Assembly: GCA_964448395.1 (NCBI GenBank)
Contig: CAYUWM010000006.1
Coordinates: 1 to 44,177, forward strand
DNA from: an uncultured Dehalococcoidales bacterium
Lineage (GTDB): Bacteria > Chloroflexota > Dehalococcoidia > E44-bin15
Length of the DNA stretch: 44,177 nt
Direction of reading: 5' to 3'
Position 1 is the stretch's first letter, and every line of letters begins with the position of its first letter. The notes below the pieces were generated by a model. It was not told where the DNA came from. It was given only the letters and a program-made list of their open reading frames with translations, and did not search any database. Of this stretch, positions 6,262 to 44,177 are shown piece after piece. Position numbers and translations under genes: made by a program.

Positions 6262-6281
6262 TCGAAAACGAACCACGAGAG

Positions 6282-6317
6282 CGCCCCGCGTGTTGCAATA
6301 GCACCGGGGCGTTTTTT
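6282..6317 (+). terminator. Intrinsic terminator after the oxidoreductase/CoA-transferase operon
   Basis: CGCCCCG-c-GTGTTG-caa-TAGCAC-CGGGGCG stem followed by TTTTTT. Confidence 0.8.
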
Positions 6318-6408
6318 ATACATCGATATGTATGTGGACTTTGGAGCCATCTTCTGCTATATTGATAAGCCACTCAAACGACGAAAATAGTGGTCGCCGA
6401 TATGTAGA

Positions 6409-7761
6409 ATGAGTAAGAAAGCAGAACCCCAGAACAGGGACTTGTTCGACTTTCAGCGGGAACAGGGATTGAGCCAGGAGGCGCCTCTGGCGGCGAGGAT
6501 GCGGCCTCAGAGCTTCGCCGATTTCGTGGGACAGGAGCACCTTATCGGTGAAGGCAGAGTCCTCCGCAACAGCATCGAGACCGACCAGCTGCCATCCATC
6601 ATCCTGTGGGGGCCGCCGGGAAGCGGCAAGACCACCCTGGCCTATATAATCGCCAGCGTTACCAAGTCGCACTTCTGCCCGATATCGGCGGTGAGTGCCG
6701 GGGTGGCCGACCTGCGCCGCGTCGTTGCCGATGCCAGAGAGAGACGCGGGATGCACCAGCAGAGAACGGTACTGTTCATCGACGAGATCCATCGCTTCAA
6801 CAAAGCCCAGCAGGATGCCGTCCTGCCCTTTGTCGAGGACGGGACAGTCACCCTCATCGGCGCCACTACCGAGAACCCCTCTTTCGAGGTCATAGCCCCG
6901 TTACTCTCCCGCTGCCGCGTGTTCACCCTCAAACCGCTCAGCGACGACCAGATACGTCTCATCACCGAACGCGCCCTTGAGGATAGTGATAAGGGGCTCG
7001 GTAAACTCCAGATATCACTGGATCGGGATGCCTTGGGCTTCCTGATCGCTATGGCGAACGGCGATGGCAGGGTGGCTTTGAACGTCCTGGAGTTGGCAGC
7101 CTTCGCCACCCAGCCCGACAAGGAGGGTAAGAGAAAGCTCACTCTGTCCACTATCGAGGATGCGATCCAGCAGCGTTCCCTGCTCTACGACAAAAGTGGC
7201 GAGGAGCACTACAACCTCATATCGGCGCTGCACAAGTCCCTTCGCGGCTCAGACCCAGATGCCGGCCTGTACTGGCTGGGACGGATGCTGGAGGCGGGGG
7301 AGGATCCGATGTACGTCGTCCGCAGGCTGGTGCGGTTCGCCTCCGAGGACATCGGCATGGCGGACCCCCGGGCGCTTATGGTAGCTGTTGCAGCCCAGCA
7401 GGCGGTTCATTTCATCGGCATGCCCGAGGGCAGCCTGGCGCTGGCCGAGGCCGTCGTTTACCTGGCCACGGCGCCCAAGAGCAATTCCCTCTATACTGCC
7501 TATTCCGAGGTTCAGCGGGACGTGCAGCGGACGGGGCACGAAGCGGTGCCGCTTCACCTGCGTAATCCGGTAACCCCCTTCATGCGCGATGAAGGATACG
7601 GCAAGGGATACAAGTACGCTCACAACTTTGAAGGACACTTCGTCGAACAGCAGAACCTTCCCGACGCCCTCAAGAACAAACGATACTACACTCCAAGCGA
7701 ACAGGGCTATGAGAAGACAGTCCGCGAGCGTCTCAAAGAGTGGTGGAAAGGCAGGAAGTAA
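6409..7761 (+). CDS. rarA: Replication-associated recombination protein A (AAA+ ATPase, MgsA/RarA)
   Basis: 'PLAARMRP', Walker A GPPGSGKT, 'FIDEIHRFNKAQQD', 'GATTENPSF', 'SEDIGMADP'. Confidence 0.96.
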   Translation: MSKKAEPQNRDLFDFQREQGLSQEAPLAARMRPQSFADFVGQEHLIGEGRVLRNSIETDQLPSIILWGPPGSGKTTLAYIIASVTKSHFCPISAVSAGVADLRRVVADARERRGMHQQRTVLFIDEIHRFNKAQQDAVLPFVEDGTVTLIGATTENPSFEVIAPLLSRCRVFTLKPLSDDQIRLITERALEDSDKGLGKLQISLDRDALGFLIAMANGDGRVALNVLELAAFATQPDKEGKRKLTLSTIEDAIQQRSLLYDKSGEEHYNLISALHKSLRGSDPDAGLYWLGRMLEAGEDPMYVVRRLVRFASEDIGMADPRALMVAVAAQQAVHFIGMPEGSLALAEAVVYLATAPKSNSLYTAYSEVQRDVQRTGHEAVPLHLRNPVTPFMRDEGYGKGYKYAHNFEGHFVEQQNLPDALKNKRYYTPSEQGYEKTVRERLKEWWKGRK

Positions 7762-7771
7762 GCAATGCAGA

Positions 7772-8251
7772 TTACAGGTGTGTCTCGGCGGCGTTGTACA
7801 CCGCCCGCAGCCTGTCCCCCAGCATGCAGGCAAGACGTTCCATCACCCTGAAGCCCACATCCGGCTCCCTCTCCAGCAACGAGCGCAGGGCATCCCCCTC
7901 GATGGATATGATCTTTGTAGGCTTCTGGCAGACGGCAGAGGCGGTTGAATACCTGGGGCCGTACAGCAAAGCGGTCCACCCCATCGCCCTGCCTTTACCC
8001 AGGATGGCGACCGGCGTCGTAGCCGTCCGCTCCCCCAGATAGAAAGTTCTCTGTAGTACAACCTGACCATCCAGGATTACGTATAGCTTCGTAGTATGCT
8101 CACCTTGGCTAAAAACGGTATCACCCGATTTGAATGCCTCTGTCGTACATCGATCGGCAAGAGAGGCAGCCAAATGACTGACCTCTTTCTCGCTCAGCTT
8201 GGCGAACAGCTCACACCCCTGTAACCCTGCTACTACCTCAGATTTGGCCAT
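7772..8251 (-). CDS. Stand-alone cyclic-nucleotide-binding (Crp effector) domain protein with no HTH
   Basis: 'ELFAKLS', 'VFSQGE...LYVILDGQV', 'STASAVC'. At 159 aa it ends before any DNA-binding domain. Confidence 0.8.
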   Translation of the reverse strand: MAKSEVVAGLQGCELFAKLSEKEVSHLAASLADRCTTEAFKSGDTVFSQGEHTTKLYVILDGQVVLQRTFYLGERTATTPVAILGKGRAMGWTALLYGPRYSTASAVCQKPTKIISIEGDALRSLLEREPDVGFRVMERLACMLGDRLRAVYNAAETHL

Positions 8252-8344
8252 CTTAAATGCCCCCCTACAATCTGCCTTTTTCTACCACTACCCGACAACA
8301 TAGTAAGATATGTCAAAAGTTGCCTGCCGGTCAAGAGATATCTA

Positions 8345-9778
8345 TCATTCGATCCCAGCAATCCTTTTAGCCTTCGTTTTGCACTGTTCTAAATCGCAGC
8401 CCGATGCCGCGATGGACTTAAAGGTCTGCACTGCGCCGCCTCCGCTGATGCACATTGCATGGTACCACCCGGCGAACTCGGAGGCGGTCATATCCTCTAT
8501 CAGTTTAAAAGCGCGAATCCGGTCTTCGGTGGACACATCGTCCTTACCCTTATAGTATTTCTCAAGGTATTTGCCGATCTCAGGATTGAAATAGTCTTTC
8601 TCCGAGGCCATCGTTGCCACCAGCCCGCCGGCGGCATCCTGCATGATGAATCGATCTTCTCCTACCCGCTTTGAGGAGAATACCTTACCGGTTGCCACCG
8701 TCGCCAGTTTGGGGCTGAAAATGCCCGATTCATGTTTCCATCCCTCGACCGCGGCATAGGTTATCAACGAGTCCATTATCTGAACCGCCATCGACATCTC
8801 GCACATATTGTCGACAATGTGAGCCGCACCGGCTACTCCATTATAGTCTGCGATTAGCCCTGTGGCCCCCAGTGAAAGCTCCATGTTATTGCGGCGGCAC
8901 ATGCATTTATGCCAGGCGTGTGACGCCCCCAGAATGACCCCGAATATGATGCCCGGCCCGTACTCGCCACACATGAACACCCGCTCCCAGGGCACGAACA
9001 CGTCATCGAAAACTATCATCGATTCCACGTGGCCGCCGTATTTCGAGCTTATCGGATTCTCCAGCTGCTTCGATTCGGCAGGGGCATGTCCCCGCTTGCA
9101 GATGAACGTTATCCCCTCGGCATCCACCGGTGTAAAGAAACCTACGAAATAATCCTCCGCGAACTCAATCTCCATAATACACAGCATATCGGTATACGGG
9201 GCGGCCGTGCTGTGGGACTTGGCCCCCCTGACCACTATGCCATCCTGCCTCTTTTCGACAACATGCAGGTACATATCGGGGTCAGCCTGCTCCGTTGCCC
9301 CCTTGCTCCTGTCGCCCTTGGGGCTTATGAACCCGCCGCCGATGATCCAGTCCTCCCTCTGCGCCTGCTTGACTATCTCAACCACATTCTGATGGTAACT
9401 GCTTCCGGTTGCCTTATCGATATCATGGCTGGCGGCCCATGCCGCATGCAACACATCAGCGGTTATACACCTGTAGGAACAGGGGCAGGGGCTTTCGCCC
9501 ATGCCCTTCATCAACTTTATCTTGGCAAAGGCATCCTGCTCATCCCGCATCAGGTGCGTCCATCGGCTTATCTCCTCACCGATGATGGGAGACACTACCC
9601 TGGAGAGATCAGAGCACTGCTTGTCGTGGCACATCTGGAAGGTCGTCGCTGCCGACTCAATCCCCGCCCTGAAAGCGGGGTGATCGACGATATTCTCTAT
9701 CTTCTCCCCCTCCATGTATACGTTAGGCTTCTGTTTCCTCAGACTCTCGATATACTCTTCTCGCGTACGTATGCCCAC
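8345..9778 (-). CDS. 4-hydroxybutyryl-CoA dehydratase / 4-hydroxyphenylacetate 3-hydroxylase family protein
   Basis: 'EEYIESLR...VYMEGEKI', 'PKGDRS', 'VVEKRQDGIVVRGAK', 'FDDVFVPWERVFMCGE'. CxxxC (CSYRC) and Hx6C (HAWHKCMC) present. Confidence 0.88.
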   Translation of the reverse strand: MGIRTREEYIESLRKQKPNVYMEGEKIENIVDHPAFRAGIESAATTFQMCHDKQCSDLSRVVSPIIGEEISRWTHLMRDEQDAFAKIKLMKGMGESPCPCSYRCITADVLHAAWAASHDIDKATGSSYHQNVVEIVKQAQREDWIIGGGFISPKGDRSKGATEQADPDMYLHVVEKRQDGIVVRGAKSHSTAAPYTDMLCIMEIEFAEDYFVGFFTPVDAEGITFICKRGHAPAESKQLENPISSKYGGHVESMIVFDDVFVPWERVFMCGEYGPGIIFGVILGASHAWHKCMCRRNNMELSLGATGLIADYNGVAGAAHIVDNMCEMSMAVQIMDSLITYAAVEGWKHESGIFSPKLATVATGKVFSSKRVGEDRFIMQDAAGGLVATMASEKDYFNPEIGKYLEKYYKGKDDVSTEDRIRAFKLIEDMTASEFAGWYHAMCISGGGAVQTFKSIAASGCDLEQCKTKAKRIAGIE

Positions 9779-9790
9779 TAGACGCCCCCT

Positions 9791-10612
9791 TTACTGGCTT
9801 TCCTGGTCCCCTTTTAAGAAACCCAAGACCTCTCTATTGAACCGTCCGCTCATCTCCACGAAAAACGCGTGCGAGCCTCCCTCGAACTTCACCAGCCTAG
9901 CACCGATAATCCTGTCCGCCAAAGTCTCGGAAGAGGTGAACGGTATTATCCTGTCGCCGGTCCCAACTATCACCAGTGTGGGGGCCTTGATATCACGCAA
10001 ACGATCCAACGTGCTATGAGAGTTGGCCGCTCTGAGCTGTCCTTTGATCCCACCGACCCCAATATACCTGAGAAAAACCTTGAAAATGGGAACTATACAG
10101 AGCTGGAACAATCTCCTGTTGAAAGCCAGGGAGGTTACCGCGCCCATTACCTGCTGCAGATCCTTATTTGCCAATGCTTCAAGATCTTCTGCGGAAGCAC
10201 CCGCCTCCAAACCCATCTCCCGCACTACACTGTCATTGATATTCCCCGTATCAGCGGTGGTACATACCAGCACAAGCTTATCGACCCTCTCCGGGTAGTT
10301 GATGGCCAACTCCTGAGCAATCATCCCGCCCAAAGAGGTCCCTACTATATGTGCCTTATCGATTCCCAGGTGATCCATCAGGCCGATTGTATCATCCGCC
10401 ATTGTCCTTACAGTATATGGCTCATTAGGTTTGCTGCTCTTCCCCACACCCCTGTTATCGAAAATGACCACCCTGTAGTGCTTCCTGAAAGCGTTTAGCT
10501 GGAAGAACCACCCTGACCCCGGGCCACCAAGACCCATTATGAAAACCAGTGGCTCCCCCTTGCCGTGTACTTCGTAATATATATTGACTCCGTTTACCTT
10601 TGTTCTAGGCAT
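9791..10612 (-). CDS. Alpha/beta-fold hydrolase (enol-lactonase/esterase-like)
   Basis: GTSLGG nucleophile elbow, 'FDNRGVG', Asp in 'GTGDRI', His in 'GSHAF'. Start moved to the ATG at 10612, which follows an AGGAG RBS. Confidence 0.88.
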   Translation of the reverse strand: MPRTKVNGVNIYYEVHGKGEPLVFIMGLGGPGSGWFFQLNAFRKHYRVVIFDNRGVGKSSKPNEPYTVRTMADDTIGLMDHLGIDKAHIVGTSLGGMIAQELAINYPERVDKLVLVCTTADTGNINDSVVREMGLEAGASAEDLEALANKDLQQVMGAVTSLAFNRRLFQLCIVPIFKVFLRYIGVGGIKGQLRAANSHSTLDRLRDIKAPTLVIVGTGDRIIPFTSSETLADRIIGARLVKFEGGSHAFFVEMSGRFNREVLGFLKGDQESQ

Positions 10613-10731
10613 TACGCCACTCCTTACTGCTAAATTACACAATACTGAGGCTACTTTAACCACGCGACAGCAGTAATGTCAATAGCATAAAGTAATATCG
10701 ATACCTGCCCCATATACGCCGCAGGAGCACC

Positions 10732-11233: not shown

Positions 11234-11917
11234 ATGGTTGATTCTATGAAGGATTTCAAAATAGAGCTCGATGAGAAGAGCGTATACCGCATCCTCGGCT
11301 ATTCCAATGGACACAAGCCAAAATCTTCTATCCGCTCGCTGGTGGACACGGAGATGGCACAGGCCTACGATCTCATCCACCCGTCATGTTCCTACCAGAT
11401 AATGGATATCAAGCGAATACGCCGACCCAGAGTCAACCTGGTTAACGGAACAAATATAACCCTCACCAGCGAGGTTCTGAGCTGGGGGCTACATCACTGC
11501 GAGCAGGCGGTCATATTCGTAGCCAGCATCGGACAGGCACTGGAGGCAAGGGTAACGCAACTGATGGCTGATGGTCAGAGCGGGAAGGCAGTCATACTCG
11601 ATGCCATAGGCTCCGAAGCCACAGAGAAAACGGTATGCTATCTCCAAGACCAGATCCGAGAGGTCGCCAAATTTGATGACGGAGAATCCACGCTGCGTTA
11701 CAGCCCCGGCTATTGCGATTGGGACATCACCCAGCAGAAGGTACTGTTTAAAGCAATGGACTCTATCCCCACGCAGGTGAGCCTCAGCGACGAGTGTGTC
11801 ATGACGCCCCGTAAGTCCGTCTCCGGCATCATCGGACTGGGGTGGAGCGAGAAGCCCCGCCTCAGGCTTTCACCGTGCCGATTCTGCACCCGACAGGATT
11901 GTAAAAACAGGAGGTAG
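11234..11917 (+). CDS. MetH reactivation-domain-like protein of corrinoid methyltransferase operons, with a C-terminal Cys cluster
   Basis: 'ILDAIGSEA.E', 'RYSPGYCDW', 'CVMTPRKSVSGIIG', C-terminal 'PCRFCTRQDCKNRR'. Confidence 0.8.
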   Translation: MVDSMKDFKIELDEKSVYRILGYSNGHKPKSSIRSLVDTEMAQAYDLIHPSCSYQIMDIKRIRRPRVNLVNGTNITLTSEVLSWGLHHCEQAVIFVASIGQALEARVTQLMADGQSGKAVILDAIGSEATEKTVCYLQDQIREVAKFDDGESTLRYSPGYCDWDITQQKVLFKAMDSIPTQVSLSDECVMTPRKSVSGIIGLGWSEKPRLRLSPCRFCTRQDCKNRR

Positions 11918-11918
11918 T

Positions 11919-13352
11919 TTGGTCAGAAAAGGTCTGGAAGGCGGTAGATATAAACCGCTATCAGAAGAAGATATCAGCCGTATCCACGAAACTGCGATGA
12001 GGGTTTTCGAGGAGGTGGGGGTCCAGGTCAACTCCGAGAAGGCCTTAAACTATTTCCGGGATGCCGGAGCCAAGATCGATGACCACGTCGTAAAGCTGCC
12101 TCGGGAGACGGTGATGGGTCTCATCAGCAGGGCGCCGTCCGAGATCACCCTTTACGGTCGCGATCCAAAGCATAATCTGCATCTTGGTGATGCCAGGGTC
12201 TACGCCGGCACGGGCGGCACCGCCCTCAACATCATCGACGGCGTCTCCGGCGAGAGGCGTCGCGCCACACTCCAAGACCTGAAAAACATCGCCAAACTGG
12301 TCGACAGCCTGGGAAACATCCACTTCTTCCTTTTGCCGACTTACCCCGATGACGTCCCGACAGATATAGTGGATGTCAACCGTTTCTTTGCCGGCCTGGA
12401 CAACACCTCCAAGCACATTATGGGCGGGGTCTACACCCGTGAGGGGCTCCAGGATGTGCTCCGCATGGCACAGATTGTCGCCGGCTCGGCAGATGAACTG
12501 CAGCGGCACCCCGTAATTTCACTTATATTATGTGCCATCAGCCCGCTGATGATAGATAGCGCCTATGGCGACATGATAATCGCCGTGGCCCAGGCCGGCA
12601 TCCCCGTAGCCCTTCCCGCAGAACCCCTGTGCGGCTCTACCTCCCCGGTAACCCTCGCCGGTAACACTGTCATCCAAACCGTAGATTCGCTGGCAGAGGT
12701 ATGCCTCACCCAACTGGTTAACCCCGGCACACCGGCGATATTTGGCTCCGTAGCTTCCAGCAACGACTTCCGCGATCTAAAATACATCACCGGATGCATC
12801 GAGATGGGGCTGCTCAACACCGCCAGCGCCCAGATGGCCCAGCTCTACAAGCTGCCATTCTATGCCACCGCCGGCATGTCCGACTCCAAGGTGGTCGATG
12901 CCCAGTGCGGCTACGAATCTGCCCTATCCCTTCTGCTGTGCGCCCTGGGTGGGGCAAACTACATCCATGATGCTGCCGGGTTGATGGACTTCGCCCTCAG
13001 CGTGAGCCTGGAGAAGTACGTGACCGACAATGAGATCATCGGCATGGTGATGCGGGCGGTGGAGGGGATAAAGGTAAACGATGATACTCTGGCCTTCGAC
13101 CTGATTAAAGATGCCGGCCCCGCGGGGCACTTCATCTACGCCAGGCATACCCGCAAGCACATCCGCAGCGAGCACTACCAGCCCGCCCTCAGCGACAGGG
13201 ACCATTTCAGCGACTGGCAGGCTAAGGGCAAGCCAGACACCGCCGCCAGGGCAAAGGCCAGGGCTGAAAAGATACTTTCCGAACCCGGATATCGGCTGCC
13301 GGAGGATACACGCCGGCAAATAATCGCCGAGATACCGGGGATAATAGATTGA
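11919..13352 (+). CDS. Non-pyrrolysine trimethylamine methyltransferase family (MttB/COG5598) protein 1
   Basis: 'IHETAMRVFEEVGV', 'GSTSPVTLAG', 'AGMSDSKVVDAQCGYE', 'IHDAAG', 'GPAGHF'. No in-frame TAG. TTG start. Confidence 0.9.
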   Translation: MVRKGLEGGRYKPLSEEDISRIHETAMRVFEEVGVQVNSEKALNYFRDAGAKIDDHVVKLPRETVMGLISRAPSEITLYGRDPKHNLHLGDARVYAGTGGTALNIIDGVSGERRRATLQDLKNIAKLVDSLGNIHFFLLPTYPDDVPTDIVDVNRFFAGLDNTSKHIMGGVYTREGLQDVLRMAQIVAGSADELQRHPVISLILCAISPLMIDSAYGDMIIAVAQAGIPVALPAEPLCGSTSPVTLAGNTVIQTVDSLAEVCLTQLVNPGTPAIFGSVASSNDFRDLKYITGCIEMGLLNTASAQMAQLYKLPFYATAGMSDSKVVDAQCGYESALSLLLCALGGANYIHDAAGLMDFALSVSLEKYVTDNEIIGMVMRAVEGIKVNDDTLAFDLIKDAGPAGHFIYARHTRKHIRSEHYQPALSDRDHFSDWQAKGKPDTAARAKARAEKILSEPGYRLPEDTRRQIIAEIPGIID

Positions 13353-13359
13353 GGTTATC

Positions 13360-14166
13360 ATGCTGATCATCGGGGAGAAGATAAACGCCACCAGCAAACG
13401 TGTGGCTGAGGCTATAATTAACAAGGATGCCTCCTTCCTTCAGGGGCTGGCCCAGCGACAGGTGGAGGCCGGTGCCGACTACATCGACGTGAATACGGGC
13501 ACCGGGCAGGGTAGGGATCAGGAGATAACCGACCTCAAGTGGGCGATAGATGTGGTGCGACAAGCCGTCGACGCACCGCTATGCCTCGACAGCTCCGATC
13601 CCCAGGCATTAGCAGCGGCAACGGCACATTATACGGGGTCCGAGCTGATAATCAACTCGGTGAACGCGGAGAAGGACAGACTGGATCCCATCGGCCGGGC
13701 GGCGGCCGAGCGCGGGGCGGGAGTGATAGCCCTGGTCATGGGGGAAGGGGGCATACCCCGCACGGTCGATGAGCGGGTTGCCGCCGCCGACCTTATTATG
13801 AATCACTTGAAACAGCTCGGCGTGAAAGAGGAGCAGGTCTATTTCGATCCCCTGGTGCTTCCCATCTCCGTAGACACCGAGCAGGGGCTGGTAACGCTCC
13901 AGACCATTGAGCAGATCAAGTCGCGGTACCCGTCGGCCAAGACTGTGGTCGGGCTGAGCAACATCTCTTACGGGCTGCCCCAGAGGGGCATAATCAACCG
14001 CGCCTTCCTGCTGATGGCGGCCGCGGTAGGGCTGGACGCCGCGATAATGGACCCCACCGATATGCGGATGATGAGCATGGTCCGGGTCTCCGATATGCTC
14101 ATCGGGAAAGACCCGGCATGCAAAGGCTTTATCAAGGCACATCGTAAGGGTATGCTACCTGAGTAA
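13360..14166 (+). CDS. Methyltetrahydrofolate:corrinoid methyltransferase (AcsE / MetH pterin-binding domain)
   Basis: 'IIGEKIN', 'GADYIDVN', 'PLCLDS', 'INSVNAE', 'YFDPLVLP', 'GLSNISYGLP'. Confidence 0.92.
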   Translation: MLIIGEKINATSKRVAEAIINKDASFLQGLAQRQVEAGADYIDVNTGTGQGRDQEITDLKWAIDVVRQAVDAPLCLDSSDPQALAAATAHYTGSELIINSVNAEKDRLDPIGRAAAERGAGVIALVMGEGGIPRTVDERVAAADLIMNHLKQLGVKEEQVYFDPLVLPISVDTEQGLVTLQTIEQIKSRYPSAKTVVGLSNISYGLPQRGIINRAFLLMAAAVGLDAAIMDPTDMRMMSMVRVSDMLIGKDPACKGFIKAHRKGMLPE

Positions 14167-14190
14167 GAGCTAACGATAGCGAGGTATGAA

Positions 14191-15723
14191 TTGGCTAGAG
14201 AAGGTATATTAATACAGAATCCCCTTACCCGGTTGAACCGGGAACAGGTAGAGAGAATCCACCGGGCTTCAATGGACATATTACTCGACCCCGGACTGCT
14301 AAGCTTCAACAAAGAGGCTGCCGAGATATTCGGCAGCAACGGCGCAGATGTCACGCCGATCACCCCCAGCGATCACCCCTGCTGGCGGGTGAAGATGCCG
14401 CAGAAGCTGGTGATGGACGCCATCGACAGCGCGCCCAAGACTGTGAAGCTGGGGGCGAGGAACCCGGACAACACGCTGATCTTGAAAGGCGACGAGCCGA
14501 GGGTGCATTTCATAACCGGGTCGGAGACCAATATCTGGCTCGACGTCGACTTCCCAACCTACGTGAAGAAAGACGATCACAATATCGAGATCCAGTTGCC
14601 GCAGTTCAAACCCAGACGAGGAACGCTTGCCGACCTGTGCGACTCGGCGCACGTTTGTGAGCACCTCCAGACGGTGGACGGGTATATCCGCACCGTGAAT
14701 ATACAGGACAAGGACATCACCGAGGAAAACAAGGACGTCAATAAATTCTTCGCCTCACTGAACCACAATACCAAGCACTTCATGTCGGGACTGACCAGCC
14801 TGAGCCAGCTGGACAACGTGGTTAAGATGGCCCGGATAATCGCTGGGGGCGAGGAAAAGTTGAAGGAGAACCCGATCATCTCTTTCATAACCTGCCTGGT
14901 CAAGAGCCCCCTCCAGTTCGTCGAGGATACCACCGACACCTTCATGGAGGTATGCAAACGGGGGCTTCCCATTGTGGTCTCATCCTCGCCCCAGGCGGGG
15001 AGCACCGCCCCCATCAAGGAAGCCGGCATCATGGCCCAGATAAATGCCGAAGTGCTGGCCGGCATCACCCTCGGCCAGCTGGTGAACCGGGGAGCCCCGG
15101 TGATATACGGCAGCGTTCCGGTCAGGGCGCGCATGGACACCCTCGGCGATTCATACGGTGCCGTCGAGACCAGCCAGTACAATGTGGACTGCGCGCAGAT
15201 GGCCCGGTTCTATAGCATGCCCAACTATTCCACATCGGGTGTTTGCGATACCAAGGTACCGGGGCAGCAGGCCTCGATCGAGAGGTTGTTCTCAGACATA
15301 CTGGTCACCTTGAGCGGGCCCCAGTACCTGCACTGCGCGTTCGGCCTCCTCGACTGCAACTCCGTCTTCTGCCTGCTCCAGGCCGTCATCGACGACGCCC
15401 ACTTCCAGATGATCAAATTCTTCCTCAGGCAGCCGCGGATCGACGAAACCGAGATTTCCACCACCCTGAAGCAGATAAGAGAGGTGGTGCAGACACCGCA
15501 AAAGCTGTATATCAGCTACATCCGCAAGGTTATGCGCAGCGGGGAGCTCTCCCCGTCCTATCCTTTCGAGGGGGGAAGCGAGGGCGACGACGTGTTCCGG
15601 CTGGCATACGAAAAAATGAACGAGCTGCTCGCCAAGCCGGTGGAGCATATAGATAAGAATACCATCGCCAGGATATTCAGTGAAATACCCGGCATACTGC
15701 CGAGGCTGAACGTTTACGGATAA
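14191..15723 (+). CDS. Non-pyrrolysine MttB-family methyltransferase 2 (divergent)
   Basis: 'IHRASMDIL', 'AGSTAPI', 'AEVLAGITLGQLVNRGAPVIYG', 'SGVCDTK'. No amber codon. TTG start. Confidence 0.85.
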   Translation: MAREGILIQNPLTRLNREQVERIHRASMDILLDPGLLSFNKEAAEIFGSNGADVTPITPSDHPCWRVKMPQKLVMDAIDSAPKTVKLGARNPDNTLILKGDEPRVHFITGSETNIWLDVDFPTYVKKDDHNIEIQLPQFKPRRGTLADLCDSAHVCEHLQTVDGYIRTVNIQDKDITEENKDVNKFFASLNHNTKHFMSGLTSLSQLDNVVKMARIIAGGEEKLKENPIISFITCLVKSPLQFVEDTTDTFMEVCKRGLPIVVSSSPQAGSTAPIKEAGIMAQINAEVLAGITLGQLVNRGAPVIYGSVPVRARMDTLGDSYGAVETSQYNVDCAQMARFYSMPNYSTSGVCDTKVPGQQASIERLFSDILVTLSGPQYLHCAFGLLDCNSVFCLLQAVIDDAHFQMIKFFLRQPRIDETEISTTLKQIREVVQTPQKLYISYIRKVMRSGELSPSYPFEGGSEGDDVFRLAYEKMNELLAKPVEHIDKNTIARIFSEIPGILPRLNVYG

Positions 15724-15731
15724 GGGAGGGC

Positions 15732-16421
15732 ATGATGAGTGAAGATATTATCGCCGCACTCAAAGAGAACGTCATACAGGGGCGAAAGACCGCGGAAGAC
15801 GAAGGGATAGACGAGGACCTGACCGGTCCCGGTGTATTGGAGCTCACGCAGCAGGCGATAGACAGCAAGATACCGCCGGACAGGATAATCAAAGAGGGGT
15901 TGACCGCCGGTATGCAGGTGGTGGGGGAGAAGTTCTCGACCAAGGAGTATTTCATCCCCGACATGCTGGCCTCCGCCGATGCGGTAGGCGCAGCCATGGA
16001 TATCCTCAAGCCGCTACTCGAGTCGGCAAACGTCGAGACCAAGGGGAAATTCGCCATAGCCACGGTGCAAGGGGATATCCACGATATCGGCAAAAACATC
16101 GTCGCTATTCTTCTCAAAGGCGCCGGATACGAAGTGAGCGACCTGGGCATAGACGTGCCCGCTGAGAAAATAGTGGAGTACGTGAAGAACGAGAACCCCG
16201 ATTACCTGGGGCTCTCCGCCCTGCTGACCACCACCATGGTGGCGATGGGGCAGGTCATCGAAGCCCTGAAGGCCGCCGGCCTGAGGGACAAGGTCAAGGT
16301 GCTCATCGGCGGTGCGGCGGTATCCGAAGATTTTGCCCGCGAGATCGGGGTGGACGCATACTGCCTGGACGGTTTCGAGGCGGTCAAGGTGCTGGATGCG
16401 TTCCGAGAAGGTAAAATTTAG
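15732..16421 (+). CDS. Cognate corrinoid (B12-binding) protein, MttC/MtgC-like
   Basis: DxHxxG in 'QGDIHDIGKNIV', 'LGLSALLTTTM', 'LIGGAAV'. Confidence 0.95.
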   Translation: MMSEDIIAALKENVIQGRKTAEDEGIDEDLTGPGVLELTQQAIDSKIPPDRIIKEGLTAGMQVVGEKFSTKEYFIPDMLASADAVGAAMDILKPLLESANVETKGKFAIATVQGDIHDIGKNIVAILLKGAGYEVSDLGIDVPAEKIVEYVKNENPDYLGLSALLTTTMVAMGQVIEALKAAGLRDKVKVLIGGAAVSEDFAREIGVDAYCLDGFEAVKVLDAFREGKI

Positions 16422-18182: not shown

Positions 18183-21100
18183 ATGGCAAATAAGGGCCAA
18201 AAAACAAAACAATCAAGTCCGCAAAGCGGCGAGGATAGGTTCAGGGAGCTGCTTGAATCACTGCCCCAGATGGTGTGTGAGACGGATCTGGAGGGGAACC
18301 TGACGTTCGCCAATAAGGTGGCCTTCGACACCTTCGGTTACAGCCAGCGGGATTTCGAACTTGGTATCAATATCTTCGATATGGTTTCCCCTGAGGACAG
18401 AGACGTGGCCATGGATAACCTGCTGAGGATAATCGCCGGTGAAAAGCTGGGCGCCGACGAATGCATGGCCCAGCGGAAAGATGGCACCAAGTTCCCGATC
18501 ATAGTTCAGGGAAGCCGTATTGTCAATGCTAAAGGTAAAGCCTCCGGATTCAGGTCATTTGTCATAGATATAAGTGAGCGAAAAAAAACAGAAGAGGCTC
18601 TCCGCGACTCGGAAGAGAAACTGCGCACCGTTTTTGAATCCATGGCAGACGCTATCGTCATCACCGATATGGAACTTAAAGTTATCGATGTAAATGAGGC
18701 TGCACTACGCATGGGGGGCTATAGTTCAAAGGAAGAACTCATAGGCATAAATGGACTTGACTTCATCTCTCCCAAAAACAGAATAAACGCGATCGAATCA
18801 TTCGGCAAGGCACTGGAATCGAGTCGCCCTGAAGAACGGCTGGAATACGCACTACTTCATAAGTCCGGCAGGGAACTGAACGTCGAATTAAGCATAGCGA
18901 TGCTGCACGACAGTTCCGGGAACCCAGCCGGATTCATCGCCATCGCCCGGGACGTTTTTGAGCGCAAGCGAACGGAGTCAGCGCTGAGGGAAAGCGAGGC
19001 CATGTTCAGAGAACTGTTTGAGAACATGAGCAGCGGCGTAGCCGTATATGAGCCTATAGATTCAGGTAAGCACTTCGTTTTCAAAGACCTCAACAGCGCA
19101 GGCGAGATGATCTCTAACGTAAAGAAGGATGAGCTTATCGGCAAAACCATTCACGAGGCCTTCCCTAACCTGAAACAATCGGGGCTGATTGACTCAGTAC
19201 GAAGGGTCTGGGAAACGGGAGAGCCGGAGCATGTACCGCCGATATATAACAAAGACGAACGCCGCTCCGGATGGAGAGAGAATAACATATATAAACTTCC
19301 TTCCGGCGATGTCGTTGCCGTCTATGACGATGTCACCGAGCGCATGGAGGCAGAGGAAGCGCTGCGGGAGTCGGAGGAAAAGTTCCGCCTGGTATTCGAA
19401 TCTATAGAAGATCTGCTCCTCGTCATGGATCTTGAGGGTATAATCGTAGAAGTTAACGAGGCAACACTTCATATATTCGGATACAGAAGTAAGGATGAAC
19501 TCATAGGCAGAAACAGCGCCGAATTGGTGGCAACGAAGGACCGTGGTAGAGTCATAAAAAATGCACTAAAAATTATAGAACAGGGCTCAGCCAGAGGGAT
19601 ATCAGAGTACCACGTCGTAACGCTTATAGCCGCAGATGGCCATGAATTCGAAGTTGAGTTCAGCATCGCTCTAGAGCGTGATGCCTCAGGTCAGGTTGTG
19701 GGCATCATCGGCATTGCTCACGACATCACCGAGCGCAAGCGCATGGAGGAAGCGCTGCGTGAGAGCGAAGAGAAACTCAGTGTCATGTTCTCATCCATCG
19801 AAGATGGAATCGTGGTCGTCGATCTGGCAGGTAATATCGTCGATGTGAACCGGGCAACGCTTCGCTTGCACGGTTATAGCAGCAGAGATGAGCTTATCAG
19901 TCGAAACAGCCTGGACCTCATCGCCGAGGATTCCCGAGCGGGGGCAATTGAGACTATGATGAAAGCGCTGGGGGAGAAACGGGGTGCCACACTGGAGTAC
20001 ACGCTGCTGAAAAAGGACGGGGGCAAGGCGGATGGCGAGGGTAGCGTCAATCTTTTTAGTGACAGCTCCGGGAATCCGCTCGGCATCGTTGTAGTGACCA
20101 GGGAGATCACTGCGCGCAAGCGAATAGAGCGAGCGCTGCGCGAATCTGAAGAGCGTTATCGCTCGGTGATAGAGAATGCAAACGATGCTATAGTTGTAGC
20201 CCAAGACGGTTTCCTCAGATTCTTTAACCCCAAGGCGATGGAGATCATGGGCTACTCACGGGATGAGCTTTCGTCCACACCCTTCCTCGATGTTATACAC
20301 CCCGACGACCGGCAGATGGTAGCCGACCGTCATCTGCGCCGACTCGCGGGTGAAGAGCTGCCCTCGGTATACGCCTTCCGCATCATTGACAAACGAGGCA
20401 ATATAAAATGGCTGGAGATCAACTCGGTGGTGATACAGTGGGAAGAGAAACCTGCTACCCTAAACTTCCTGAGCGATATCACCGAACGCAAGTCAGCGGA
20501 ACGGGTCCTCCAGAAACGCAATCGGGAACTCACCGCTATAAACGCTATAGCGCAGTCGCTGACTCAATATACCAGATTGAACAAGGTTCTTCAGACTGCG
20601 CTTTACAGCACCCTTGAGGTCACCGGCTTGCTCACTGGAGGCATATGGCTCCTCGATGAAGGCAAGGGTAAACTGGTACTTGCCATTCACAGGGGATTTG
20701 GCAGGAGATTCGAACGGGCTATGGTCAGAATGCCCATGGAAATAGGCGTCGCCGGTAAGGTGATGGCCATATCCGATATCCACGCAAACAAAGAGCTGCA
20801 TCCTAAGTACAAAGAGACAGCCCGCCTGGATGGCTTGCAATCCGCCATCAGCATTCCCCTTAAGTCAAAAGGTAAGACACTGGGAGTAATAAATTTATTC
20901 AGTCACAACCGCCGAGATTTCCCCGCTGAGGATATCCAATTGCTGGAGACAATAGGTGGCGAGATAGGTGTTGCCATCGAAAATGCTAAACTGCTCGAAA
21001 AGCTGAGTGAGCAATCCGAAACTGATGAACTGACCGGGCTGTATAACCGCCGCCATTTCTACGATACCCTCGATAACGAGACCTACAGTACATGGCGCTC

Positions 21101-22115
21101 CGGACGCTCTTTCTCCTTGGCCATACTCGACCTTGACGGTTTCAAGAGATACAATGACCGATTTGGCCACATCAGCGGCGATGCAGTGCTGAAGCACTTT
21201 GCCAACGCAATCAAGCTGGCTATACGCAAGAGTGATATCGCTTTCCGCTATGGCGGCGACGAGTTTGCTGTGATACTGCCATCAACCAGCGCCGATAGGG
21301 CTAAAAAGATTATCGAACGAATTAGAGATAAGTGGCCTAAAATTGCACAGGAACAGTATCCCGTTTTAGAAAACCCTATAAGGTTCAGCGCCGGAATAGC
21401 CCAGTTTCCCGACGATTCGGAAACGTCAGATGGCCTGGTTTTCCTGGCAGATACCTCCCTGTTTACCGCCAAAAGAGGCAAAGGCTACAAAACCACAATG
21501 GCATCCGAGCTCGGTGAACTCCCTATAGATGCCCGGGGCCCGGCAACGCTCGATCAGGTTTACGCCCTGGCATCCACCGTTGATGCCAGATCCCCCTACA
21601 CGTCCGGCCATTCTAACAGGGTCGCCACCGTAGCATCGGTGATAGGCAGGGCTATCGGGCTGTCTCCGGAGGAAATGGAACAGCTAACGACAGCCTCTTT
21701 GCTACATGACATCGGGAAGCTAGGCGTTCCCGACTTAATACTCAGGAAGCCTGAAACACTCACCAGAGACGAGCGTCGCGTAATAGAGAAACACGCTGCA
21801 GAAGGGGCTAAAATCCTCAGTCACGTGAGCGAGCTGACAGCACTGGCCCCCATAGTGCGGCATCACCATGAATGGTATAACGGAGAGGGCTATCCGGAAA
21901 GGCTGAAGGGTGAGGACATACCGCTGCTTTCCCGGATCATCACCGTGGCCGACTCGTACGACACCATGGTCACCCCACTGCCGCACCGGCAGGCTATGAC
22001 CCACGAAGATGCGCTGGACGAATTGAGGCGGTACGCGGGTGTACAGTTCGATCCCGATCTGGTAGAGTCATTCGCCGAAAGCGCCAGCGACGGCATTCCT
22101 CAGGCAGAAACCTGA
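18183..22115 (+). CDS. Multi-PAS + GAF + GGDEF diguanylate cyclase + HD-GYP phosphodiesterase
   Basis: Repeated PAS/PAC units ending in 'DI(T/S)ERKxxExALRxSE', a GAF domain, RKSD I-site with GGDEF, 'LLHDIGK' and 'GEGYP'. Confidence 0.93.
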   Translation: MANKGQKTKQSSPQSGEDRFRELLESLPQMVCETDLEGNLTFANKVAFDTFGYSQRDFELGINIFDMVSPEDRDVAMDNLLRIIAGEKLGADECMAQRKDGTKFPIIVQGSRIVNAKGKASGFRSFVIDISERKKTEEALRDSEEKLRTVFESMADAIVITDMELKVIDVNEAALRMGGYSSKEELIGINGLDFISPKNRINAIESFGKALESSRPEERLEYALLHKSGRELNVELSIAMLHDSSGNPAGFIAIARDVFERKRTESALRESEAMFRELFENMSSGVAVYEPIDSGKHFVFKDLNSAGEMISNVKKDELIGKTIHEAFPNLKQSGLIDSVRRVWETGEPEHVPPIYNKDERRSGWRENNIYKLPSGDVVAVYDDVTERMEAEEALRESEEKFRLVFESIEDLLLVMDLEGIIVEVNEATLHIFGYRSKDELIGRNSAELVATKDRGRVIKNALKIIEQGSARGISEYHVVTLIAADGHEFEVEFSIALERDASGQVVGIIGIAHDITERKRMEEALRESEEKLSVMFSSIEDGIVVVDLAGNIVDVNRATLRLHGYSSRDELISRNSLDLIAEDSRAGAIETMMKALGEKRGATLEYTLLKKDGGKADGEGSVNLFSDSSGNPLGIVVVTREITARKRIERALRESEERYRSVIENANDAIVVAQDGFLRFFNPKAMEIMGYSRDELSSTPFLDVIHPDDRQMVADRHLRRLAGEELPSVYAFRIIDKRGNIKWLEINSVVIQWEEKPATLNFLSDITERKSAERVLQKRNRELTAINAIAQSLTQYTRLNKVLQTALYSTLEVTGLLTGGIWLLDEGKGKLVLAIHRGFGRRFERAMVRMPMEIGVAGKVMAISDIHANKELHPKYKETARLDGLQSAISIPLKSKGKTLGVINLFSHNRRDFPAEDIQLLETIGGEIGVAIENAKLLEKLSEQSETDELTGLYNRRHFYDTLDNETYSTWRSGRSFSLAILDLDGFKRYNDRFGHISGDAVLKHFANAIKLAIRKSDIAFRYGGDEFAVILPSTSADRAKKIIERIRDKWPKIAQEQYPVLENPIRFSAGIAQFPDDSETSDGLVFLADTSLFTAKRGKGYKTTMASELGELPIDARGPATLDQVYALASTVDARSPYTSGHSNRVATVASVIGRAIGLSPEEMEQLTTASLLHDIGKLGVPDLILRKPETLTRDERRVIEKHAAEGAKILSHVSELTALAPIVRHHHEWYNGEGYPERLKGEDIPLLSRIITVADSYDTMVTPLPHRQAMTHEDALDELRRYAGVQFDPDLVESFAESASDGIPQAET

Positions 22116-42375: not shown

Positions 42376-44177
42376 CTACGGCGTGACAGTTATCAAATCG
42401 TTGGTCCATGTAGCGTTGATGAGGCCGCCCCACATGTCCCGCAGCCAGCACTGCGATATGTTGAACCCGATGGAGCTGTTCTCCCCCGCCGAGCCGTTGA
42501 TGTGGAAGTGTATCTGAGACAGGTAGCCCGCACCGTCGACCCCCGGGTTGCCGTCAACGCTGCAGTTCACCCGCAACGTGCCCGGGCCACCCGGCAGGTT
42601 CCAGTCGGTTACATTCACCGGGTAGAAGTCAGCCGATATACCTGGGTCTATCTCCAGCAGCCTTCCATTGGTAATACCTTCCAAATCGAGCACGCTTTCG
42701 TTATAGATGACCTCGTAGCTGGCGGAGCTGAAGTTCTCCACGTAGGTGATGAAAACAGTGGCTTCGAAATGGGTGCAATAAGGCAAGCTGTCGGGGGCCT
42801 CTATATGCACGTGGTGCCACGGCCATATCTCCAGTATCATGTACTCTATCGTGCCGAGGTCGCTGGTATTCACCGTGCCGTCCTGATTGGCATCAGAGCA
42901 TGGCGTTTGAGCATCCCACGTCAGTATAATCCTCTCCGTCTTGGTGATATCGGCTGCATTTATCTCCCCGTCACCGTTGGCATCTCCCGGGATGCATGAA
43001 GGCGTTGCGCTCGGCGTGGGCGTCGAGCCGATAGTACTGGTTGCCGTTGCCGATGCGGTCGCTGTAGCGGTGGCAGTAAGCGTTGCCATCGATGAAGGCG
43101 TTGGCGTGGGAGAAGGCGACGCGCTGGCGGTTGCCGTAGGCGTGGCTGTAGCCGTAGATGTGCCGGTAGCAGTCGGCGACGACGTAGCCGTTGACGTGCT
43201 TGTAGACGTGACAGTAGCGGTACTGGTGGAGGTGGAAGTGGAAGTAGCGGTGGAAGTAGCGCTGGCGGTGGCGGTACTTGTCGACGTAGTAGTAGCGGTA
43301 GGCGATGATGTAGCCGTTGATGTGCTCGTAGATGTGGAAGTGCTCGTAGCGGTGGCTGTAGCCGTGGATGTCGCCGTCGCCGTCGCCGATCCTGTCGGTG
43401 TTGGCCCAACGCTCGAAGAGCATGTGGCAGTCGGTGTAACCGTAGCCGTGGTGGTAGCCGTAACCGTTGCTGTTGCTGTTGGCGTCGCCGACGCCATAGG
43501 GGTGGGACTTCAGGTTGGACAGGGGATATGTACAGAGTCATCCAGCCAGGTTGCGTTTATCTCCACCGAATCATTGTCATAGAGCACACGCTCCCCGGTG
43601 AAACTCAAGCTGGCATTGCCGCAATTGTAGCAGTCCACGTCAAAGTCTATAACAGCCAGCGTGCCCGCGCCGGAGGCGCCACCCACACCGCCAACATTAT
43701 TGATAACCCTGATGGTTCCCTGCTCACCCGCCGGTATGAACCCCCAATCAGAAACGGGAATGATGGTTGCACCGATGGAGCCGTTATGAACGGCGGTGAC
43801 GTTGAGCAGCGCGGGGTCATAGGTAATATCGTAGTTAGCCGAGTCGAATCCGGTCACCTGGCTGATGTTCACTGTGGCAGAGAAGTTGGAGCAGCGGCCG
43901 GCGTTGAGAGGCGCCTCGATCCAGACCTGCGCTGTCTGCGTCGGCGTTGGCGTTGGGACTGTCGTCAGAGAGGCCGTAGCTGTAGCAGTGGAAGTGGCGG
44001 TGGTTGTGGGCGTCAGCGTAGGCGTTTGCGACGGCGTGGAGGTAGGCGCTCCGCCTCCACCCACCAGCACCGACGTGTTGTACCAGCTAACCTCCCTATC
44101 GTCATACAGGTACTCCCCATCGGCGTACCCCACTATCATCATCGTCGGCCGGAACAGGATGTCCGTGATGCCGGTGT
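42376..44177 (-). CDS. 3' part of a large surface protein (linker-cohesin-[UGA]-Thr/Ala/Ser linker-dockerin-cohesin), with an in-frame TGA at 43510-43512
   Basis: ORFs 43510-44142 and 42376-43497 are in the same frame, separated only by TGA plus 4 codons (SPTP). The frame is open to the window end. Cohesin-like beta domains and a dockerin with twin 'GDANGDG'/'DANQDG' Ca-loops. Confidence 0.8.
42990..43500 (-). repeat. Low-complexity Thr/Ala/Ser/Pro linker repeats
   Basis: About 170 codons of TAT/TST/TPT repeats, with synonymously diverged copies (e.g. near 43176 and 43301). Confidence 0.85.

Follow-up and report, generated by a model that had tools for sequence, protein, structure and literature searches.

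Bacterial selenoprotein genes, such as fdhF of Escherichia coli, carry an in-frame UGA followed directly by a small G+C hairpin with a G[G|U]N loop, the selenocysteine insertion sequence (SECIS), as described in the bacterial SECIS (bSECIS) model of Zhang and Gladyshev (PMC13188914). Similar features are present in a gene at one end of CAYUWM010000006.1, a contig of 44,177 nt from an uncultured Dehalococcoidales bacterium (this whole contig is called the window here), where an in-frame UGA and a hairpin lie in a linker of a secreted surface protein composed of cohesin and dockerin domains. Judging from the comparison of related sequences, this UGA is probably a programmed recoding site of some kind, and insertion of selenocysteine (Sec) is the most likely mechanism, with about an even chance of being the right one. 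Compared with known bacterial SECIS genes, the locus is unusual in several ways. Homologs have Ser or Pro rather than Cys at the site, which lies in a low-complexity linker between domains of a secreted scaffold without enzymatic function. In one genome the gene has two or more UGAs, and the cassette of UGA and hairpin occupies different junctions in different genomes. Conservation also does not extend to a lower stem or an internal loop.

Vertebrate selenoprotein P (SELENOP) is likewise secreted and has several in-frame UGAs, at which termination yields shorter isoforms (PMC5727441). However, SELENOP is eukaryotic, functions in selenium transport, has its SECIS in the 3' untranslated region, and is unrelated in sequence and fold. 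In phage Qbeta, most of the product of coat/A1 is short, but because its UGA is leaky, a minor fraction carries a C-terminal extension that adds a function. That UGA differs from the one considered here in that it belongs to a phage gene, is decoded by tRNA-Trp, and has no conserved hairpin with a GGC triloop at SECIS spacing. The protein itself resembles the cellulosomal and non-cellulosomal scaffoldins (e.g., Clostridium thermocellum CipA; Archaeoglobus fulgidus cohesin 2xdh) in its cohesin fold (TM 0.75-0.80), its type I dockerin motif, and its Thr/Pro-rich linkers. Unlike the scaffoldins, it contains beta-propeller-like repeats and a domain called X, and no carbohydrate-active domains were detected in it. 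To our knowledge, no scaffoldin is interrupted by a conserved in-frame stop. Literature searches returned none, nor did a literature search return a paper linking selenoproteins or readthrough with cohesin-dockerin proteins. Recoding of UGA by a downstream hairpin would be a mechanism of a known kind. What would be new is its use in a secreted structural protein, the linker position, the absence of Cys counterparts, the presence of several UGAs per gene, and a cassette at differing junctions.

The gene is on the minus strand of the window, and the window ends inside it. Around the site, the sequence CAT ATC CCC TGT CCA ACC TGA AGT CCC ACC CCT ATG GCG TCG GCG ACG CCA reads HIPCPT*SPTPMASATP, with the TGA, the proposed recoding site, at 43510..43512; in residues, the context is HIPCPT-X-SPTPMASATPTATATV, where X is the UGA position. 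The hairpin, UGGCGUC-GGC-GACGCCA (43480..43496), has a 7-bp stem and a GGC triloop. The arms TGGCGTC (5', 43490-43496) and GACGCCA (3', 43480-43486) flank the loop (43487-43489). The stem begins at the 14th nt past the UGA, the loop G is the 21st nt, and the predicted energy is -9.9 kcal/mol. An ATG at 43497 is preceded by CTGTCCAACCTGAAGTCCCACCCCT, in which there is no Shine-Dalgarno-like run, and its product (MASATPTATATV...) has no hydrophobic segment (Kyte-Doolittle maximum 0.62, compared with 2.3-2.7 at the true N-termini of the related L068 and L002 genes). Pfam places a Cohesin domain before the TGA and Dockerin_1 after it. The TGA, the positions of the stem and the loop G, and the lack of a ribosome-binding site and signal peptide at the ATG had been pointed out in a preliminary description of the window and are borne out here. 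That description had also called for a check of the reads. The TGA is identical in the window, in four other assemblies (L001, L006, L065, which is the NCBI metagenome-assembled genome (MAG) GCA_034431175.1, and L066), and in contigs of four public runs (X1, X2, X4, and X9), with no alternative base in any of them. A sequencing or assembly error was rejected on these grounds.

Pro-Cys-Pro-Thr (43513..43524), which abuts the UGA and gives it a CxxU context, comprises the first four residues of the linker. In the AlphaFold2 model the last beta-strand of the cohesin ends ...SVHI, and PCPT is therefore already linker. The suggestion that CxxU is a motif of this site holds in part: a Cys is found 3-5 residues upstream of the UGA in four of the five instances considered below, but instance A (TPT-U-SST) has no nearby Cys. 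Directly downstream of the UGA, a Cys is found in three instances.

The same arrangement recurs in related sequences. Sixty-one loci were fetched with a cohesin profile that is blind to stops, syntenic loci were added by way of the downstream module, and all six frames were scanned for stops of any kind after which the next 30 codons are 80% or more Thr/Ala/Ser/Pro. The scan found only TGA, with no TAA or TAG. When the locus L068 is included, the sites number five, in four contexts, and come from no fewer than four genomes or populations; an in-frame TGA shared by two or more different sequences is one of the comparative criteria for a selenoprotein family (e.g., PMC1088965). Instance B is the window site. 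Instance A is the second TGA of the window gene and is present in L001, an independent assembly of the Joint Genome Institute (JGI) with 1 mismatch in the 997 nt that overlap the window. The window gene runs off the contig end at 44059..44177 (minus strand), and L001 extends it 1.5 kb upstream, adding 1535 nt in the same frame. This frame (frame 2 of L001) is open for more than 840 codons save for the two TGAs, which are in the same context. The TGA of instance A (L001 881-883) is in the middle of a linker (TPT*SSTPAASATP), and its surroundings, ACC TGA AGC TCT ACA CCT GCG GCG TCG GCG ACG CCA ACA GCA ACG, are nearly identical to those of the window TGA.

The other instances come from other genomes. 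Instance C (L002/L003) is from a more distant relative with the same start: an ACP gene, a signal anchor, a cohesin ending SCPL, the TGA, and an in-frame linker. Instance C' is in L068/L070. L068 is an 88-kb contig from a related genome, whose HisF is 95% identical to that of the window, with PlsX and ACP upstream of the surface-protein gene and HisF, NrpR, GlnA, and NadE downstream. Here the gene is complete (5291-10618) and consists of 510 codons, the TGA, and then 1264 in-frame codons with no other stop. The first 510 codons specify an N-terminal hydrophobic anchor, beta-propeller-like repeats, a linker, and a cohesin that ends HIPCPP; the 1264 codons specify a linker, an X domain, a cohesin, another X domain, a dockerin, and a second cohesin-like domain, and end with TAG. 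This post-TGA part has no signal peptide and no conserved start. Instance D (L009) reads CPLPP*CTPTP, and a dockerin follows downstream in frame.

All five instances share a plan of about 50 nt: UGA, a spacer of 13-17 nt, a G+C stem of 6-7 bp, a GGC triloop, and then CAACAGCAAC. The core, CGTCGGCGACG, is present in every one and forms the stem and triloop. Counted from the U of UGA, the GGC loop is at nt 24-26 (27-29 in D). In the window, the conserved cassette spans 58 nt (43461..43518, minus strand; CC-N4-UGA, a 13-nt spacer, the hairpin, and CAACAGCAAC) and scores 81.3 bits with the cassette covariance model, R1. With this model the five instances score 74-82 bits, the next best sequence 36.5, and ordinary linkers below 30.

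It had been a worry that Ala/Ser/Thr codons readily form hairpins. Yet among 6016 unique linker codon positions in 70 related loci, a perfect stem of at least 6 bp starting 10-20 nt downstream follows only 42 (0.7%), compared with 5/5 in-frame TGAs. Several of the 42 are the TGA sites themselves, and the remaining hairpins are of unrelated sequence. The 11-mer core is found in two other distinct places in about 350 kb, neither of which has a full hairpin after a stop. A REP-like (repetitive extragenic palindromic) or mobile palindrome was rejected because the core occurs almost nowhere else. The cassette was found neither at about 25 other cohesin-linker junctions of close relatives, which read straight through as SCPTPTPT, nor elsewhere in the window. 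A motif scan of viral contigs gave no matches, and a second profile search, for cohesins ending right after Cys, returned just the three already known. A TGA after the cohesin of L031 (700-760) is not a cassette; it is flanked by an imperfect tandem duplication, AATGACTCAGTGCATGTGGTTG / AATGATTCGTGCATGTTTTGG, and looks like a small duplication, a frameshift artefact, or a mutation.

The cassette is constrained at the level of nucleotides. Between L002 and L068, the 51 nt from the TGA are 96% identical, compared with 57% for the 60 nt before and the 110 nt after. Among the 15 cassette codons that specify the same residue in both, there is one synonymous difference, where about 8 would be expected from the adjacent cohesin (pS, the proportion of synonymous differences, 0.51; P = 3.5e-4). 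The cassette has been retained across cohesins that are about 30% different in protein sequence. Instances A and B share the stem GGCGUC/GACGCC, whereas C, C', and D have GCCGUC/GACGGC; within the consensus 6-bp stem, the two differ by a single compensatory change of G-C to C-G, through which Ala and Pro codons are also exchanged. A paralogous sense counterpart is provided by J2, the second cohesin junction of L068, which reads CCA TCA TCT AGC CCG ACG CCC ATG GCG ACT GCG ACG GCT. Here TCA (Ser) replaces TGA, and ACT and GCT replace TCG and CCA, abolishing the hairpin. Since J2 has neither the TGA nor the hairpin, the two are either present together or absent together. An ordinary junction in L014 is one A-to-T change short of the hairpin, and the cassette could therefore arise easily.

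The sequence after the TGA is under purifying selection. For the dockerin and cohesin-like module, which follows the TGA in both the window and L068, the ratio of nonsynonymous to synonymous substitution (dN/dS) is 0.118 at dS 0.50. For the same pair, neighboring housekeeping genes have similar values, 0.061 at dS 0.47 for HisF and 0.204 at dS 0.32 for NrpR. The value for the X domain is 0.29. The low value after the TGA indicates that this sequence has been maintained as protein since the genomes diverged. Relaxed selection and decay, as expected for a pseudogene, are not seen; L068 has its 1264 open codons, and dN/dS is 0.12-0.29 at dS 0.5-0.6. The anatomy of the gene, the recurrence of the cassette, its conservation at the nucleotide level, and the selection on the downstream coding sequence are shown by these comparisons.

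How well does the hairpin fit a SECIS? The bSECIS model has an upper stem of 4-16 bp, capped by a loop of 3-9 nt whose first or second base is G (as a rule G[G|U]N), a distance of 16-37 nt from UGA to loop, and a minimum free energy of -7.5 kcal/mol or lower (PMC13188914). All five instances agree with the model in each of these respects. A 3-nt loop, GGC, closes a perfect stem of 6-7 bp. The loop is 23 nt from the UGA in D and 20 nt in the other four instances, and the energy is -8.3 to -10.7 kcal/mol for the hairpin alone and -11.5 to -15.8 kcal/mol with its context. Moreover, the UGA lies within a coding sequence that continues, as the dN/dS downstream attests. Given the geometry of the ribosome, a stem 13-17 nt past the UGA should stay folded outside the mRNA channel when the UGA is in the A site, as is required of an element bound by SelB.

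Known selenoprotein genes offer parallels. An example SECIS in BSepDB, that of Acetomicrobium selD, has a G+C stem and a GGC triloop at nt 21-23 (PMC13326102). In the Sec-type [NiFe] hydrogenases, some of them from Chloroflexota, the loop G is 100% conserved, compared with about 26% in their Cys-type relatives (PMC13582414). Loss of the SECIS structure upon conversion of Sec to Cys has been reported for SelD (PMC13582414) and parallels the loss of the hairpin at the TCA junction. Decoding of Sec also occurs in the class Dehalococcoidia. Dehalogenimonas alkenigignens has selC, selA/D, and selB as well as UGA-containing selD and fdh genes (PMC4918011), and two Dehalococcoidia MAGs, with 46-49 selenoproteins each, are among the selenoprotein-richest bacteria (PMC13326102).

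Several observations weigh against insertion of Sec. The bSECIS consensus is permissive. The Rfam SECIS models gave no match on L001, L002, and L009 even at E up to 10, although bacterial SECIS elements are too diverse for such a miss to weigh much (PMC13188914). Neither selA, selB, selC, and selD nor tRNA-Sec was found in the 44-kb window or the flanking loci, which amount to about 1-2% of a genome, too small a part to be informative, and a noisy scan of the window and flanks found no other recognizable selenoprotein gene. Nearly all known selenoproteins have Cys homologs (PMC13188914), and the pairing of Sec with Cys serves as a criterion for recognizing them (PMC1088965). Here, the sense homologs have TCA (Ser) or CCN (Pro), never Cys, and no hairpin, which is one of the two outcomes that the preliminary description had named as refuting its proposal. 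The site itself is in a low-complexity, non-catalytic linker, and instance A is without a Cys within about 45 residues. Finally, the five cassettes represent two or three sequence types, in which A/B and C/C' could be recent gene-conversion copies, and the covariation rests on one pair with two states (A and B share one stem; C, C', and D share the other). A separate candidate, a 61-aa in-frame ORF (open reading frame) in L068, was rejected as a selenoprotein; it is a fragment that precedes a normal GDH gene.

That the UGA is decoded, the central proposal of the preliminary description, is thus strongly supported by recurrence, by purifying selection after the TGA, by nucleotide conservation with its compensatory pair, and by the loss of the hairpin with TCA. 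These observations do not divide Sec insertion from near-cognate readthrough without selenium, in which an ordinary tRNA (Trp, Cys, or Arg) would occasionally read the UGA and the hairpin would raise the rate, giving a fixed ratio of short (cohesin-only) to long (dockerin-bearing) product, as with coat and A1 in Qbeta. This explanation, somewhat unlikely in our estimate, fares best among the alternatives. The same comparative evidence for decoding speaks for it, and the occurrence of TGA alone agrees with UGA being the leakiest of the bacterial stops. A linker tolerates any residue, consistent with Ser or Pro in the sense homologs and with the Cys-free surroundings of instance A. Several instances have Pro or Pro-Pro before the stop, and no Sec machinery would be required. 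Other features seem to fit readthrough less well. The base after the UGA varies (A twice and U three times, in a following codon AGY or UGU), and UGA-U is a strong termination context in E. coli. The position of the stem, 13-17 nt past the stop, is a SECIS-like spacing, whereas known readthrough stimulators are closer, typically about 8 nt from the stop. In addition, an invariant GGC loop with G first is what a SelB-type reader predicts; a simple roadblock would not need it. Programmed readthrough that depends on a hairpin is not known to us from any gene of a bacterial chromosome, and a literature search returned no case of it.

A true stop with no recoding is quite unlikely. Under this explanation, a TCA-to-TGA change spread by recombination or gene conversion, leaving a split gene or pseudogene, or else the downstream part is a separate gene expressed by internal initiation. 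The paralogous junction does have TCA, one base from TGA, and the repetitive linkers, together with the shuffling of modules between genomes, make conversion plausible, as does the near identity of A with B and of C with C', which are maybe recent copies. Gene callers split the gene at this point, and proteins that end 0-2 residues past the last cohesin strand are common. In other lineages, the dockerin and cohesin module exists as a stand-alone protein with its own signal peptide (e.g., P0137). Ordinary nonsense variants also occur in this gene. Over 5.5 kb, only 2 nt distinguish L070 from L068, and one of these changes TAT to TAG in the propeller region (L070 5564-5566). This TAG, seen in one sample and either a plain nonsense polymorphism or an allele in decay, serves as a control for a real nonsense variant: it is strain-specific, it is another stop codon, and it has no cassette.

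A true stop is contradicted, however, by the purifying selection on the modules after the TGA and by the 1264 codons left open after the TGA of L068. Nor is there a conserved start codon, ribosome-binding site, or signal peptide after the stop; an ATG is present in instance B only. Termination-reinitiation at UGAUG was rejected, as A and B have no overlapping AUG and that of C, C', and D is in another frame. Instance A is in mid-linker, where a gene boundary makes no sense. Furthermore, a spreading null allele leaves unexplained why the cassette is retained across such divergent cohesins and why the hairpin is found with TGA and lost with TCA. The simple alternatives first raised, a recent nonsense mutation and a chance hairpin, are disfavored by recurrence, purifying selection, cassette conservation, and the loss of the hairpin at TCA.

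It is very unlikely that the inverted repeat serves another role, as a protein-binding or recombination site for module shuffling or as an RNA processing or stability element, with the TGA incidental: although the cassette is conserved as nucleotides and sits at different junctions in genomes whose module order differs, it is always on the coding strand in the same register, 13-17 nt past an in-frame TGA, it is missing at about 25 other cohesin-linker junctions and elsewhere in the window, it lacks the U-tract of a terminator, and such a role leaves the translation of 1264 selected codons unexplained.

If Sec is inserted, one mRNA would encode a very long, signal-anchored, secreted cohesin/dockerin surface protein of uncultured bacteria from anoxic sediment, with cassettes in its inter-domain linkers. 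With the UGA in the A site, the hairpin would act as a SECIS just outside the ribosome. At each cassette, most ribosomes would take one of two courses: they would terminate or, if the hairpin carries SelB with Sec-tRNASec, incorporate Sec and move on into the dockerin-bearing part. Termination would give a short, signal-anchored form with cohesin only, and continuation would add X, cohesin, and dockerin modules able to dock onto the cohesins of neighboring molecules. Three elements of this scheme are inferred: Sec as the residue inserted, SelB as the reader, and the production of two isoforms in some ratio. One can speculate further that the cassette is a portable UGA-SECIS module that places Sec beside Cys (CPxU, UC) in flexible extracellular linkers of a non-enzymatic scaffold, where selenylsulfide or diselenide cross-links would survive in reducing sediment although disulfides would not, and that selenium supply and the efficiency of SelB set the ratio of the short, anchored form to the long, self-assembling form; the role of Sec would then be structural or regulatory and not catalytic, with no Cys counterparts. 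This more elaborate version is unlikely to be correct in full.

Bacterial selenoproteins have been found almost entirely through Sec/Cys pairs in redox enzymes, and a family that has Sec in a linker of a secreted structural protein and no Cys counterpart is invisible to pipelines of this type. If Sec insertion is correct, it would suggest that these pipelines overlook a part of the selenoproteome, above all in sediment lineages rich in Sec. With a residue other than Sec, the locus would instead be a rare example, in a bacterial chromosome, of programmed UGA readthrough associated with a hairpin. In both cases a single gene would specify two architectures, an anchored cohesin alone or the same cohesin fused to further cohesins and a dockerin, and this would be a simple means to tune a self-assembling network at the cell surface. 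Gene callers now cut such genes into fragments and add spurious out-of-frame ORFs in the linkers.

The remaining parts of the window gene, all on the minus strand, are as follows. At the contig edge (44059..44177) is the C-terminal part of an X domain of about 200 aa, seen in the translation and without a Pfam match. It is followed by an inter-domain linker rich in Thr/Pro/Ala/Ser (43930..44058) and the cohesin (43525..43929; Pfam PF00963, E 5.7e-10). The AlphaFold2 model of this cohesin has a pLDDT of 95.7, with residues 131-135 as the final strand, and its best matches in Foldseek are cohesins (TM 0.75-0.80; e.g., 2xdh, TM 0.75). Past the UGA, a Thr/Ala/Ser/Pro linker of 174 codons (42988..43509) continues in frame to a dockerin (42823..42987; Pfam PF00404, Dockerin_1, E 5e-7) with two Ca-binding repeats, DANGDGEINAAD and DANQDGTVNTSD. 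A second, divergent cohesin-like domain (42385..42813) has homologs, P0134-P0144, with precomputed PF00963 assignments, and the gene ends at a TAG (42376..42378). Together, Pfam, AlphaFold2, and Foldseek identify both the beta-sandwich fold of a cohesin and the duplicated Ca-binding motif of a dockerin.

The X domain (...VDIFFVNSSYNISDDGCVQFWTWINISAPLELFFAGQFQLEWDCNLLELR...) is present at L001 1052-1650, in two copies in L068, and in P0005-P0008. In all of these proteins it is without a Pfam match and alternates with cohesins. The order of modules is X, X, cohesin, dockerin, cohesin-like in the window genome (with L001) and propeller, cohesin, X, cohesin, X, dockerin, cohesin-like in L068, even though housekeeping genes of these genomes are about 90-95% identical. 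The cassette is at different junctions in the two, indicating that modules have been shuffled, presumably via the repetitive linkers. These linkers hold near-perfect tandem repeats of about 110 nt (...TATCSSSVGPTPTGSATATATSTATPTVTSTVTPTATP..., four copies) at L001 540-870 and at 42988-43509 of the window, and all of the assemblies break in such repeats, the end of the window contig included. Gene callers and ORF lists also report spurious ORFs, rich in His/Arg/Tyr/Gly, in other frames and on the opposite strand of the linkers (L001 544-1113; L068 6823-7224 and 7843-9978; window 42971-43423 and 42941-43582), and one of them begins at the UGAUG overlap. Public annotation of these loci is therefore fragmented and partly wrong.

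The gene content of the window is bacterial. The neighbors of the surface-protein gene include HisF, NrpR, a GltB-like protein, GlnA, NadE, and a cluster for corrinoid methyltransferases. TGA is an ordinary stop here; about 10 of the 33 long ORFs end in it, among them those of GlnA, an MttB homolog, and a large PAS-GGDEF-HD-GYP protein (18183-22115), and a local signal would therefore be needed for decoding. An alternative genetic code with UGA as sense was rejected, since TGA ends GlnA and others at normal lengths. The only genome matches of the cohesin family are two uncultured Dehalococcoidales MAGs, and related metagenome contigs come from salt-marsh, hypersaline, marine, and freshwater sediments. 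Another strain co-occurs in the salt-marsh samples (runs X1, X2, and X4) and shows 18 differences over 198 nt within the cohesin domain (window 43789-43986).

The methyltransferase cluster (11234-16421, plus strand) encodes a Met_synt_B12-like activation protein, MttB homolog 1, a pterin-binding methyltransferase, MttB homolog 2, and a B12-binding corrinoid protein, which suggests demethylation of a quaternary amine or similar substrate to tetrahydrofolate. Within the intact ORF of one MttB-family member (11919-13352), Rfam model PYLIS_3, the pyrrolysine (Pyl) insertion sequence of mttB, matches 12876-12975 (plus strand) with 42.5 bits, above its gathering threshold. The position of UAG in the model is AUG (Met) in the window, indicating a non-Pyl MttB homolog in which the match reflects conserved coding sequence rather than a Pyl signal. 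An archaeal origin, with a SECIS in the 3' untranslated region, had been prompted by NrpR and this match; it was rejected because the window encodes the PAS-GGDEF-HD-GYP protein and the match is in an intact, non-Pyl MttB. In L042, a cyclic di-GMP (c-di-GMP)-I riboswitch (5696-5786, 80 bits) is located about 200 nt upstream of a related cohesin-protein gene, which suggests control of this surface-protein family by c-di-GMP in some lineages.

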